From: a bacterium
GTDB lineage: Bacteria; Electryoneota; Electryoneia; Electryoneales; Electryoneaceae
Length of the DNA stretch: 64,000 nucleotides
Direction of reading: 5' to 3'
Assembly: GCA_963675295.2 (NCBI GenBank)
Contig: CAXXKJ010000002.1
Span: forward strand, 2,464,001-2,528,000
The notes below the pieces were generated by a model that was not told the origin of the DNA, searched no databases, and saw only the letters and a program-made list of their open reading frames with translations. Below are positions 3,039-7,318 of this stretch, piece by piece (positions within the stretch are counted from its first letter, which is position 1; each line of letters opens with the position of its first letter). A program made the position numbers and the translations under genes.

Positions 3039-3115
3039 TGGTCGGGGTGACTGGATTTGAACCAGCGACCCCCTACTCCCGAAGCAGGTGCGCTACCGGG
3101 CTGCGCTACACCCCG
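3039..3115 (-). tRNA. tRNA-Pro (anticodon CGG)
   Basis: Minus strand CGGGGTGTAGCGCAGCCCGGTAGCGCACCTGCTTCGGGAGTAGGGGGTCGCTGGTTCAAATCCAGTCACCCCGACCA; 77 nt, TTC T-loop, encoded CCA. Confidence 0.97.
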
Positions 3116-3145
3116 ACTCATCTGCCCGTTTTCCGGGCGGCTTTA

Positions 3146-3174
3146 ATTATAGACTCCTCGACCGGCTCTGTCAA
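3146..3174 (-). promoter_or_regulatory. Consensus sigma70 promoter of tRNA-Pro
   Basis: Minus strand TTGACA-17 nt-TATAAT, a perfect consensus ~30 nt upstream of the tRNA. Confidence 0.9.
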
Positions 3175-3236
3175 TGCCGTTTCTCCCCGCAAGAGACACC
3201 ATCTAAGACGACCCGCAACCCGTGAAAATCAGGGCA

Positions 3237-3269
3237 TAAAAAGAGGAAACCGGCCGGAGGCCGGTTTCC
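3237..3269 (-). terminator. Intrinsic terminator (minus strand) upstream of the tRNA promoter
   Basis: ggaaaccggcc-gga-ggccggtttcc 11-bp stem followed on the minus strand by tcttttt. Confidence 0.8.
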
Positions 3270-3318
3270 CTGGCATGGGGACAGCGTTAAGGGGATTACG
3301 CTGTATAGGGGTCGTAGT

Positions 3319-3622
3319 AAAAAAGAGCCGGTGAACTCACGGAAACCGTTGGGATAGGAATCACCGGCTCTTCAGCCTGAACCCGTGCGAGTGAACCGTG
3401 CAAATCAAATGCGCCCATCGTCGGACAGCAGTCAGTCGTCAAATCATGGGAGAAGATGCTCGTCAGCAGTGCAAGGTGGCCCGTGCAGGAATCAGTGCGT
3501 GTCAACCGTACAGTGTTCAGTGCGTGTTAACCGCTCAGGTAACCGTGCGTGTAAGCAGTAGCGTCTCGCCGATGGATGCTGTGAAAGAACCAAACCGTAA
3601 CTCGTGCAACTCAGGGTTCACT
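3319..3622 (-). ncRNA. Candidate sigma54-dependent repeat-motif sRNA (~300 nt)
   Basis: Sigma54 promoter at 3632-3647; terminator-like stem 3323-3372 plus U6; repeated ACGGUU and GCAC(G/U) motifs; no credible ORF. Confidence 0.6.
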
Positions 3623-3631
3623 CGTACACGC

Positions 3632-3647
3632 TGCAATTCATATGCCA
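3632..3647 (-). promoter_or_regulatory. sigma54 (RpoN) -24/-12 promoter
   Basis: Minus strand TGGCATATGAATTGCA = TGGCA-N6-TTGCA, with exact GG-N10-GC spacing. Confidence 0.75.
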
Positions 3648-3857
3648 TCGACTCAAAATCGGACATCCGGGTGGGGTATTTCGGGGCGAAACGTGAAGCA
3701 AATGTCAGTCCAGAATGTTAGCGTCGTGTTAAGAGGCCGTCCTGATTAAGGGATACAGCCAAATTCACAAGCTGTGGCGCGAAGGAGCCGCTCTGGCTCT
3801 CGGGGGACTGAAGCGGGCAGTCATTCTCACAGGCAACGGGATCTGACCGTGAATCTC

Positions 3858-3892
3858 GTGCATATCGTGCACAGCGCGCGCAAAAAATGCAC
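3858..3892. promoter_or_regulatory. Tandem palindromic sites, putative enhancer (UAS) for a bEBP
   Basis: GTGCA-tatcg-TGCAC (3858-3872) and GCGCA-aaaaa-TGCAC (3878-3892), 20 bp apart, ~240-270 bp upstream of the predicted sigma54 TSS. Confidence 0.55.
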
Positions 3893-3909
3893 GCGATGCG
3901 TCCGAGGCG

Positions 3910-6210
3910 CTAGAACTCAGCACTGACGCCAATTGAGGGCAGCAGGCCGATGGATTCGTCCACGATTGCCCGGTTTTCGCGTTCATCCCAGCGCGGAGCT
4001 CGTTCGTAGGGATTCTGATACACGTTCTGAACGTCAACGTACGCGATCAGGGTCCAACGATCAAAGAACCAGCGGCGGTCAACGCGCACGTCCAGGCTGT
4101 GGTTGATGCCGGTACGTTCGGTGTTGAACTTGGCAGGATCCTGGCTGCCGTCCGGCTCGAACGGGGTGTACGGCGACCCGGTGGCAAGGCGGAACTTGAA
4201 GGAGGTTTCCCAGTGGTTGCTGAAGATGAAGCCGCCGCCAATGTTGAACAGCCAGCGCTGATCGAACGAAGATGGGCGTTCGATCCCGTCCAGCGCGGTG
4301 AAGTAGGTTTCACTCCACGTCAGGCTGGCGATCGCGTAATGCGGATTGTCGCCGGCCCGTTTTTGCGCGAACAGCTCGACACCGCGTGACCAGCCTTCAC
4401 CCGCGCTGACCAACCTGTCGAATCCATACGCCGCGAAACCGTCCTGCGTGCCGCTGTAGCCCGCGCCGGTACTGGCGAGCACCAGCCATGGACGGTCCAG
4501 ACTCGCTGGATAGTTAAAGTAGTCCTTGTAGAATCCTTCGACGCTGACTTTGACATCACTGCGCAACAGGTAATCGACTCCGGCGACCAGTTGGTCGGCA
4601 CCGATCTGCTCCAGCTGCGTGTTCGCCGGTTCGCTGAGCCAGACATAGCTCGGTGCCTGGTGGTAGCGTCCGACGGACAGAGTCAGGTTGCTGCGTGTGG
4701 TCAGCGGATAGAGAGCGGACAGGCGAGGTGAAAACGCGAATCCGTCATCGAGCAGGTCGAAGTAGTCGGCGCGGACACCGCCGGTCAGCCGCAACAGCCC
4801 GAACCGGCGTTCGATCTCGGCGTACGCGGCGGACTTGAATGACGACTGCTGGTACGCTCGGTCAAGGTCCAGCGAACCGCCGTAGGTGTCGTCATAATCG
4901 GGCAGGTCGACGTTGACATCGACAGCGGCGAAGGTTTGCTGAACGCCGGTGGTCAGGCGTGTGTCGTCATCCAGGTCGACCACGACTTCGCCGGTGACCG
5001 TGGTTTCCTGCTCGCGGGAATCGTTGCTGAAGATTTCGGCCAGCAACGTATCGCGCTGAGTGATCTGAAAGTCCTGCAGCGAATGGCTCAGTCCGACGGT
5101 CGAATAGCCCCAGTCGAAGAAGTGCTGCCATTTGAGCCCGCCGAGGGACAGGATCTGGTCGGATTCCGGGACACGGGAATTGTCGTAACGCTGATCGGCG
5201 TCGTCGTTGAGCAGGACGACGTTGTCGAGCGCGGCGATGCCGAGCACGGTAATGCGGTCACGATCGGTCAGTTGATAATCGGTACGCGCGAGGAAGTCCC
5301 AGTATTCCGGCACGAAGGCGAAGCCGGCGGACTTGAAGATGAAATCAAGATAGCTGCGTCGGGCGGAGAAGATGAACGATCCGCGGTCGCCGTCCACCGG
5401 CCCCTCAAGGTTGAGGCCGAACTGGGACGCAGAGATGGTCGCCTTGCCGCCGATGCGGTCGTCACGGCCCTCTCGCAGATCTACCCGCAGTACGCTAGAC
5501 AGCTTATCGCCGTATTCCACGCCGAACCCGCCGGTGGAGAAGGTGGTTTCCTCGATGAAGTCAAGGTTGATAAAGCTCTGCGGGCCGCCGGTTGCACCCT
5601 GGGACCCGTAGTGGTTGATGTTCGGGATTGGGAAGCCGTCCACGATGAACAGGTTTTCGCTCGGCGCTCCGCCGCGCACGATCAGATCGTTCCGTCCCGG
5701 TGAAACCTGCGCGATGCCGGGCAGGATCGAGATTGCGCGGACCACGTCTTCAAAGCCACCAGGCAGACGGCGGATCTCTTCATTGCCCTGTACCACGGTG
5801 CTGATCTGGGTTTCGTCACGTGAAGAGAAGAATCCGGGGGTGAAGGTGACCGTTTCCAGCTCGACGGCGGATGGTTCCAGTTGCACATCGAGTTTGATCG
5901 GACGCGCCGACGAGATCGAGATGTCGGTTTCCACGACCTGCGCGAACCCGACGGCGGAAAACTGGATCGCGTAGACGCCGGGCGGCACGTTGGCCAACTG
6001 GTAGTTGCCATCGAGATCGGAGGCAGTCCCGCGTTCCGTTCCGAGGATCAGGACGTTGGCGCCGGCAATCGGCTCGTTGGTCTTGGCGTCCGTGATGGTG
6101 CCGTGTATCTCACCGGACGGCTGGGCGTGGCCCAGACCGGTGAACCCGGCCAGTAGCAGTGCAAGGAAGACAGGAAAGCGTACGAACGCAGTTGCGAATC
6201 GGGTGTTCAT
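3910..6210 (-). CDS. TonB-dependent receptor with N-terminal carboxypeptidase-regulatory-like domain
   Basis: Signal peptide; GTITDAKTNEPIAGANV; plug motif VRGGAPSENLFIVDG; C-terminal IGVSAEF. Start at ATG 6210 (track 6252). Confidence 0.9.
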   Translation of the reverse strand: MNTRFATAFVRFPVFLALLLAGFTGLGHAQPSGEIHGTITDAKTNEPIAGANVLILGTERGTASDLDGNYQLANVPPGVYAIQFSAVGFAQVVETDISISSARPIKLDVQLEPSAVELETVTFTPGFFSSRDETQISTVVQGNEEIRRLPGGFEDVVRAISILPGIAQVSPGRNDLIVRGGAPSENLFIVDGFPIPNINHYGSQGATGGPQSFINLDFIEETTFSTGGFGVEYGDKLSSVLRVDLREGRDDRIGGKATISASQFGLNLEGPVDGDRGSFIFSARRSYLDFIFKSAGFAFVPEYWDFLARTDYQLTDRDRITVLGIAALDNVVLLNDDADQRYDNSRVPESDQILSLGGLKWQHFFDWGYSTVGLSHSLQDFQITQRDTLLAEIFSNDSREQETTVTGEVVVDLDDDTRLTTGVQQTFAAVDVNVDLPDYDDTYGGSLDLDRAYQQSSFKSAAYAEIERRFGLLRLTGGVRADYFDLLDDGFAFSPRLSALYPLTTRSNLTLSVGRYHQAPSYVWLSEPANTQLEQIGADQLVAGVDYLLRSDVKVSVEGFYKDYFNYPASLDRPWLVLASTGAGYSGTQDGFAAYGFDRLVSAGEGWSRGVELFAQKRAGDNPHYAIASLTWSETYFTALDGIERPSSFDQRWLFNIGGGFIFSNHWETSFKFRLATGSPYTPFEPDGSQDPAKFNTERTGINHSLDVRVDRRWFFDRWTLIAYVDVQNVYQNPYERAPRWDERENRAIVDESIGLLPSIGVSAEF

Positions 6211-6287
6211 ATCGTCTCTGATCGGTGAACGGTCGTAGAATAACTGTTTCATTTAGACGCAGATGCCGGTCAGAAGTTGCCTCGAAA

Positions 6288-7166
6288 TTATCCGATACGG
6301 AATGGCGTGGAGACCGTGCCCTCGAACACCTTCACCGCTTCGCCCTCGAGGATCGCGTATTCCCAGTCCTTGCCGATGGTAACCGCGAGCATGCCGCCCG
6401 GCATGCGGACGGTGACCGGTTCATCGTACGGGAACATGTTCTGCGCTACCGCGGCTCCAACGGCGGCGATGGCGCCGCTACCGCAGGCGAGGGTCGGGCC
6501 GACACCGCGTTCATAGACGACGAGTGCGAGTGTGTCCTCGGCTTCACGGCGCGCAAAACCGACATTCACGCCTTCGGGGAAGATGTCCGTGTGGATCGCC
6601 ATGCGGCTTCCGATCTCGTGAACGTCTTCACCTTCCCACATCTCTGTGTTGAAGAGGACGAAATGCGGATTGCCGACTCCGACGGCGGTGCCATAGAACG
6701 GTTCGGCGAGGCCCGGCACGGAGACAGGCACGTGAATCGTCTTTGCGCCACCCTTGAACTGTGCGTCTTTCGGATCGAAAGAAGGGACCGGCATCGAGAT
6801 CTGGATGCGGTCGTTTTCGACGAATCGTGCCGCGACGATCCCCGCGCCGGTGAGGATGTTGACGCTGTCGGCGTCCTGGATCGGTTCGCCCAGGTCGGCG
6901 AGGTAGCGCATCAGGCAGCGCAGGCCGTTACCACACATCTCAGCGGGGGAACCGTCTGCGTTGAAATAGCCCATGCGGTAGTCGGCGCTACCGGAGTCGC
7001 GCACGGCGACGATGAGGCCGTCCGCGCCGATGCCGTGGTGACGGGTGCACAGGGATGCGATGGTGTCGCTGTCCAGCGCGGACCAGATTCGACGGTCGTC
7101 ATCGAGGTTGTTCACCATGATGAAGTCGTTTCCGGCGCCGTGATATTTGAAAAAGGATAAAGTCAT
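6288..7166 (-). CDS. dapF: Diaminopimelate epimerase
   Basis: FFKYHGAGNDF, GIGADG, EMCGNG, GNPH, ERGVGPTLACGSG motifs; start at ATG 7166 preferred over 7214. Confidence 0.95.
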   Translation of the reverse strand: MTLSFFKYHGAGNDFIMVNNLDDDRRIWSALDSDTIASLCTRHHGIGADGLIVAVRDSGSADYRMGYFNADGSPAEMCGNGLRCLMRYLADLGEPIQDADSVNILTGAGIVAARFVENDRIQISMPVPSFDPKDAQFKGGAKTIHVPVSVPGLAEPFYGTAVGVGNPHFVLFNTEMWEGEDVHEIGSRMAIHTDIFPEGVNVGFARREAEDTLALVVYERGVGPTLACGSGAIAAVGAAVAQNMFPYDEPVTVRMPGGMLAVTIGKDWEYAILEGEAVKVFEGTVSTPFRIG

Positions 7167-7172
7167 GAAATC

Positions 7173-7318
7173 GGGCTCTGGGCTTGGGGCTCGGGGGCTC
7201 TTGGTTTTGGCCATAGGCGACAGACTATGGGCTGCAGGCTATGGGAACTGATTACTGACAACTGCACAGTGAATACGGATCGCTACCAACTGTTCACTGA
7301 CAACTGAGCACTGGCAAC
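7173..7318. repeat. Stacked degenerate heptamer tandem arrays (three unit types)
   Basis: gggctcn x4 (7173-7200); ctatggg-like x5 (7211-7245); (a/c/t)actgnn x10 in register (7246-7318). Confidence 0.8.

Follow-up and report, generated by a model that had tools for sequence, protein, structure and literature searches.

A conserved non-coding RNA gene with a sigma-54-type promoter and a GCAC(G/U)G motif array upstream of tRNA-Pro(CGG): a candidate titrating RNA in Electryoneaceae

What is encoded upstream of the tRNA-Pro(CGG) gene of this bacterium, where a sigma-54-type promoter on the minus strand is followed by repeated short motifs rather than by a protein-coding gene? The initial annotation had proposed a sponge-type small RNA at positions 3319–3647 of the window, by which we mean the whole stretch of 64,000 nt that was analysed. 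We consider it very probable that a genuine, conserved gene for a non-coding RNA lies here, behind a promoter of sigma-54 type. For the more specific reading, that it produces a sigma-54-controlled titrating RNA, we see roughly even chances.

A gene for a T9SS-tailed LVIVD protein flanks the unit on one side; on the other come a TonB-dependent receptor gene (3910–6252, minus strand) and then dapF (6288–7214). Its conserved downstream neighbour is tRNA-Pro(CGG) (3039–3115, minus strand). Upstream of the unit lies dapF in genera g1 and g5, and a different gene is found there in g9 and g4. The TonB-dependent receptor gene intervenes between dapF and the upstream sites of the RNA in the window genome and G001; in G002, G003, and G007 dapF directly precedes these sites.

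The consensus of sigma-54 promoters has GG at −24 and GC at −12. Both dinucleotides are present, in the canonical GG-N10-GC spacing, in TGGCATatgaaTTGCA at 3647–3632 of the minus strand, which is of sigma-54 type by this measure, and this spacing puts the predicted transcription start near 3621. The TGGCA-N6-TTGCA pattern that the initial annotation had read here is indeed present and is the single match in the window. As 0.18 matches were expected and 18 of 100 shuffled sequences contained at least one, the match alone is not significant; its support comes from conservation, with TGGCA(C/T)-N5-TTGC kept in all seven orthologues and the 5-nt spacer varying between species. The genome itself encodes rpoN (PF04552, E = 5e-52), the presence of which had been left to be checked, and has 25 matches to the sigma-54 activator family PF00158, about 20 of them strong.

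A second element lies farther upstream. Four TGCA/TGCG half-sites spaced 9–11 bp apart form an activator-like cluster at 3857–3892 (minus strand, read from the sequence), about 236–271 nt 5' of the predicted start. Three to four (A/G)TGCA-type sites precede the promoter in all seven orthologous loci, and the half-sites are presumably the binding site of a sigma-54 enhancer-binding protein. A regulon search of the own genome for upstream sites plus promoter returned just this locus or unrelated sites, and the strict form of the pattern matched this locus only, which hints at a small, dedicated regulon. No activator gene was found near the RNA, either among the flanking genes in four genera or within about 10 kb in G011, G006, and G007. 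Elsewhere in the own genome, outside the window (C2:451760), six TGCA sites cluster between genes, upstream of a 218-aa ORF, and overlap a −24/−12-like TGGC-N8-GTGCA sequence.

The RNA body up to the first terminator spans about 303 nt (3319–3621, minus strand). It ends in hairpin T1 (3319–3372, minus strand), which has a 12-bp stem, a 26-nt loop, and then U6, seen in the DNA as a run of six T on the RNA strand at 3324–3319. The stem is a 12/12 inverted repeat of 3323–3334 with 3361–3372, in agreement with the stem and U run described before. T1 is followed by module 2 (3271–3314, minus strand), a hairpin of 6–7 bp (3281–3304) with CCCC in the loop and CCCC on both flanks, and by terminator T2 (3238–3270, minus strand), a 12-bp G+C-rich stem followed by a T run. 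The terminator scan listed T2; T1 was not listed because its loop is 26 nt long. Both have the build of an intrinsic terminator, T2 with its G+C-rich stem and U run and T1 with its 12-bp stem and U6. T1 is probably an intrinsic terminator, possibly a partial one, and the transcript unit probably includes the C-rich hairpin and the second terminator, which lie 3' of the end assigned in the initial annotation. The sigma-70-type promoter of the downstream tRNA gene (3146–3174, minus strand) agrees with the consensus at 12 of 12 positions, and its form TTGAC(A/T)-N17-TATA(A/T)T is kept in the orthologues. It marks the end of the RNA unit and is outside the RNA.

This arrangement bears on the idea that the region is a small-protein gene or a leader of the tRNA transcript, which we regard as extremely improbable. 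The minus strand of the window copy does contain short ORFs of 69, 33, and 43 aa, as a coding region would, but among the seven orthologues no ORF is conserved and frame, start, and length all differ, and a Pfam search of the local ORFs gave no match. This agrees with the earlier statement that no credible ORF lies behind the promoter. As for a leader, the tRNA is set off from the RNA by two terminators and by the sigma-70 promoter with its 12/12 match. Rfam searches of the window region (E ≤ 10) and of five orthologous loci (E ≤ 1) found just the tRNA, the outcome that had been named as a mark of novelty, and we describe the locus as a new non-coding RNA family.

A search for homologues beside tRNA-Pro in related genomes had been suggested, and this is where they occur. 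The full unit was found upstream of tRNA-Pro(CGG) in seven of 16 family genomes, belonging to four of 11 genera. What is conserved comprises the upstream TGCA-type repeats, the promoter, the motif array, the C-rich hairpin, and the terminator. A DNA search of 41 genomes detected the element in five of them, at full length only in the closest species and elsewhere as the 3' 100 nt only. A covariance model of the 3' domain, searched over 79 genomes of the phylum, had strong matches in the same five genomes only. Five weak matches of the model (E 8e-5 to 9e-3, five genomes) were found to be ordinary terminators or coding sequence. Diverged members in G011 (genus g9) and G006 (genus g4) were found upstream of the orthologous tRNA-Pro(CGG) in the set of 16 genomes. 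In both, TGCA repeats and a −24/−12 promoter precede a motif array, and the C-rich hairpin and a terminator are there as well; the T1 sequence, which is restricted to genera g1 and g5, is missing.

Both genomes of genus g2 (loci L029 in G014 and L031 in G004) have an element of about 120 nt located about 150–300 nt upstream of tRNA-Pro. Two to three motif copies stand in and before a covarying 10-bp hairpin that is followed by a U run, with GCACGG(UU) before the hairpin and ACGG(G)UU..GCACGG inside its loop. A clean −24/−12 promoter is missing from the g2 element, which may be a relative of the RNA in reduced form. In another seven of the 16 family genomes, no such element was found upstream of tRNA-Pro(CGG).

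No further copy of the unit was found in the 79 phylum genomes. The module 2 pattern had 29 matches in the phylum genomes versus 17 for the reversed control, and array and promoter accompanied it only at the five known loci that fit the pattern. A pattern scan of genome contigs returned only four species, all already known. One locus of a different kind, L021 (G066:C3, about 465,400), holds at least three tandem copies of a unit of about 100 nt, each ending in a terminator-like hairpin.

Metagenomes were scanned as well. The 3'-domain pattern had zero matches. A triple-motif scan had at least 118 matches, and none of the 80 examined pairs a motif cluster with a sigma-54 promoter. Of these 80 loci, 64 (including L106 and L084) represent one gut-metagenome element that is unrelated to the RNA. 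In this element the 3' end of a tRNA is flanked on either side by 11-bp direct repeats, GCACGGTTTCT/GCACTGTTTTT, which look like recombinase arm-type sites. Metagenome contig L144 contains long arrays of units of about 12 bp, CTATCGCACGGT/CTATCACAGAC. In the own genome, outside the window (C2:2770973), a tRNA gene and an integrase-like ORF flank four direct repeats of TGCACC.

The repeated motifs are the most distinctive part of the RNA. The minus strand of 3319–3647 contains five ACGGTT (plus-strand coordinates 3344, 3394, 3504, 3541, and 3593), eight GCAC[GT], seven GCAC[GT]G, three TTGCAC, and zero GGA. The counts of ACGGUU, GCAC(G/U), and UUGCAC given in the initial annotation were reproduced, and the motif is other than GGA, as had been said. 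In the own genome (4.8 Mb), this locus is the sole cluster of at least five ACGGTT within 320 nt on one strand, and nowhere in the genome is GCAC[GT] denser than the eight per 300 nt found here. A cluster of at least four ACGGTT occurs at just one other place in the genome, outside the window at C2:1492128–1492326, where an exact 66-bp tandem repeat has ACGGTT in each of its four units.

The motif array of the window RNA (3344–3598, minus strand) consists of 10 instances, formed by seven GCAC[GU]G and five ACGGUU that overlap. Dinucleotide shuffling gave a mean of 0.55 and a maximum of three instances (1000 shuffles), and the antisense strand has zero. Each of the seven orthologous RNAs has 6–12 instances, compared with shuffle means of 0.27–1.06 and shuffle maxima of 3–5 (1000 dinucleotide shuffles); this enrichment test is partly circular because the motif was defined on the same sequences, although G011 and G006 have little else in common with the window copy. 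The consensus of the 60 instances in the seven RNAs is G-C-A-C-(G/U)-G-U-U-(pyrimidine). We read the core motif as GCAC(G/U)G, often followed by UU and commonly found as GCACGGUU. The motifs first noticed were upheld as strand-specific and conserved, and were refined to GCAC(G/U)G(UU) with a phasing of about 12.5 nt. The sequence between motifs diverges among the seven orthologues. A sponge RNA is expected to repeat one conserved motif many times while the rest of its sequence diverges, and this is the pattern seen here.

The phasing comes from the distances between adjacent motifs. These are 10–14 nt in 26 of 53 cases, and the rest cluster at 22–26, 35–39, 48–52, and 63–73 nt; orthologous spacings are not independent observations, and a relic of a 25-nt tandem duplication is a possible source of the phasing. 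The typical unit is GCACGGUU-N5-GCACUG-N5. Three 25-nt tandem units, starting at 3481, 3506, and 3531 (span 3481–3560), were identified by a repeat search in the window copy, and the 16/17 direct repeat seen earlier is part of them. The phasing of about 12.5 nt may reflect binding of an oligomer or mere tandem duplication.

Could the repeats act as DNA? They might be extra activator sites or relic arm-type sites of a tRNA-targeting integrase, and the upstream sites and the RNA motif do share TGCAC, while GCAC-type direct repeats also occur beside tRNA genes elsewhere, namely in the gut-metagenome element and in the own genome. We nevertheless judge this explanation to be very unlikely. The strand bias of the motif across the seven RNAs is absolute (60 sense versus zero antisense instances), whereas the upstream sites are near-palindromic. 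Moreover, the repeats, which lie 5' of the tRNA, are enclosed by a conserved promoter and terminators; the flanking genes include no integrase; the unit has been inherited at one place across four genera; and its sequence occurs in RNA libraries. The strict strand bias, together with the single copy in the genome, argues for a function at the RNA level.

Evidence on expression comes from public sequencing runs. Among the runs, 24 were listed as holding part of 3200–3920, and 10 of these were recorded as RNA. Four of these ten, from four metatranscriptome studies, each yielded one whole contig of 156–231 nt with 0–1 differences, located inside 3374–3608; strand, ends, and expression level cannot be read from such contigs, and DNA may be present in an RNA library. 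A comparably small share of the query words occurs in seven runs that were guessed to be DNA. None of the near-identical contigs covers 3135–3320 or 3609–4027, and three stop at 3604, 3606, and 3608, positions that contigs from a selection of runs do not establish as transcript boundaries. Contigs of diverged relatives map to the array and T1, and one of them ends 10 nt past the T1 stem. The RNA-library contigs support expression, short of proof.

We then considered structure. The minimum free energy of the RNA is no better than that of shuffled sequences (z = −0.45), which speaks for the titrating reading; base-pair probabilities predict no difference in accessibility between the motifs (0.38) and the rest of the RNA (0.40), which speaks against it. 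Structural support is confined to T1, the C-rich hairpin, and the T2 stems, and covariation is minimal in a set of only seven sequences, two of them 95% identical. T1 has 12 pairs with one compensatory change, G-C to A-U, in two of five sequences; in its loop ACGGUU is invariant and the neighbouring positions vary. Pairing of module 2 is complete (42 of 42 cells paired versus 9.5–47.6% in slid controls) and includes one compensatory pair. This module is the part most widely conserved across genera (7/7 orthologues), with the G003 copy lacking CCCC both in the loop and on the 3' side. The T2 stems covary, differing in sequence among the orthologues with pairing kept.

The complementarity between the 5' end and the 3' domain that the initial annotation had pointed out is real in the window copy, where 3612–3627 and 3385–3400 are 88% complementary over 16 nt. 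It was rejected as a family feature because, although invariant within g1, its 5' arm is not evident in G007, G011, and G006. The 5' part of the G007 RNA (L006 1183–1280) has two copies of a 7-bp hairpin, each followed by CCGAGCACGGUUC, which places the motif directly 3' of a stem.

A different RNA-level function is base pairing. RsaE/RoxS-type RNAs use C-rich loops to pair with G-rich ribosome-binding sites, and by analogy the GCACGGUU units could be redundant seeds for mRNAs or another small RNA, or module 2 could pair with G-rich ribosome-binding sites. The genome does use Shine-Dalgarno sequences, as GGAG, GAGG, and GGGG peak 7–12 nt upstream of crude gene starts; module 2 presents three CCCC runs beside a terminator and has the widest conservation; and searches for CsrA, RRM, Hfq, and ProQ found no known chaperone or titratable protein. 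The target searches point the other way. Complements of the repeat were not enriched in intergenic DNA (42 sites versus 38 for the reversed control), and the seven such sites within 150 nt upstream of gene starts had no common theme. Sites of 7–8 nt for the repeat or for module 2 at −30 to +6 of 3402 crude starts were no commoner than those of shuffled queries; for the complement of the repeat unit, 150 genes were counted versus 126.7 ± 24.8 with shuffled units, and 11 of 60 shuffles were at least as high. The loss of two CCCC runs in G003 also speaks against pairing through module 2. With gene starts taken from a simple ORF rule, these tests are crude; they lower the standing of base pairing, which we hold to be possible but doubtful.

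Next, we looked for proteins that could bind the array. The initial annotation had suggested an RRM, cold-shock, or CsrA-like partner. CsrA, RRM_1, and Hfq had no match in any of the six carrier genomes (the own genome, 92.8% complete, and five others), and ProQ had no match in the own genome. Two of the three suggested classes are accordingly unsupported by these searches, and the third is represented by five cold-shock-domain matches in the own genome, among them four small cold-shock proteins. Cold-shock-domain genes occur in most bacteria. The likeness of UUGCAC to the U1A site fell with the RRM searches, which leave the analogy without basis in these genomes. Since the partner search found none, it is the architecture that points to a sponge.

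Under the titrating reading, the following mechanism is proposed. Sigma-54 RNA polymerase would transcribe a stand-alone non-coding RNA gene, and a dedicated enhancer-binding protein of the NtrC family would activate it from the TGCA-type repeats about 240–270 bp upstream. The transcript would start near 3621 and end at T1 (about 303 nt) or, by read-through, at T2 (about 383 nt). The mostly unstructured array would be its working part, with 6–12 GCAC(G/U)G motifs set apart by multiples of about 12.5 nt and one of them displayed in the T1 loop. Once induced, the RNA would capture, in many copies, one factor that binds single-stranded RNA sequence-specifically, probably an oligomeric protein, and so withdraw it from mRNA targets, following the logic of CrcZ-Hfq or CsrB-CsrA. 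Next to the final terminator, the C-rich hairpin may make the RNA more stable or give it a second activity, by base pairing. Of the original sponge proposal, the non-coding gene with its conserved promoter, its motifs, and its sequence in RNA libraries stood up to analysis; dependence on sigma-54 and an activator, the exact RNA ends, and the titration mechanism are what we infer.

A bolder version can be put forward tentatively, and we think it rather unlikely. The RNA would then act as the decoy in a global post-transcriptional system of a third, undescribed kind, in which new oligomeric single-strand RNA-binding regulators act at GCAC(G/U)G sites about 12.5 nt apart, in a lineage without CsrA, RRM, or Hfq matches (six carriers) or a ProQ match (own genome). 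The system would be switched by a dedicated sigma-54 two-component pathway, and the RNA would be its main or only target.

The locus matters because the carrier genomes show none of the classical small-RNA partner proteins in the searches made (CsrA, RRM, and Hfq in 6/6; ProQ in the own genome). A conserved, apparently expressed RNA with up to 12 motif copies could serve as bait for the RNA-binding regulator of the lineage, and it offers a handle on what one of about 20 sigma-54 activators senses. The narrow distribution and apparent lack of a cultured carrier limit the interest of the RNA. In the literature on Calditrichota, the little-studied phylum to which the family probably belongs, we found no characterised small RNA.

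Several known RNAs resemble the one described here in part. ToxI-type type III antitoxin RNAs bind protein through direct repeats, and consist of exact tandem units with a toxin gene next to them. The present RNA is likewise built of repeats, but these are short motifs set in diverged spacers, and a tRNA gene comes next. A type III antitoxin RNA was rejected as an identification on the grounds that a tRNA gene is found downstream instead of a toxin gene and that no ORF has a family match. GlmY/GlmZ and Qrr are stand-alone small RNA genes with −24/−12 promoters and upstream activator sites; GlmY is a protein decoy, and Qrr acts by base pairing with Hfq. Unlike the RNA studied here, they are shorter and have no repeat array, and no Rfam match connects it with them.

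The closest parallels are in the Csr/Rsm and Crc systems. CsrB, RsmY, and RsmZ share with the present RNA the many repeats of one motif, the terminator end, and the copy of the motif in a hairpin loop. They differ from it in motif and partner, as it contains zero GGA and CsrA was not found in 6/6 carriers, and again there is no Rfam match. CsrB, RsmY, and RsmZ are not known to be sigma-54 dependent. The Crc system provides the parallel in control. CrcZ is described as an RNA of 407 nt with six A-rich, single-stranded stretches that titrate the global translational regulator Hfq and with an RpoN promoter activated by the two-component activator CbrB (PMC4063720). CrcZ and CrcY of Pseudomonas and Azotobacter resemble the present RNA in the sigma-54-type promoter, the length of a few hundred nucleotides, and the repeated short motif. 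In contrast, the motif here is GCAC(G/U)G and not A-rich, Hfq was not found in 6/6 carriers, no Rfam match was obtained, the activator gene is not adjacent, and the phylum is another one. The RNA is not a member of the CrcZ or CsrB/Rsm families because the motif, partner, and covariance-model tests all fail. If its partner belongs to a new protein family, then motif, protein, and phylum would all be new to the decoy principle of Csr and Crc, in which an RNA acts against a translational regulator.
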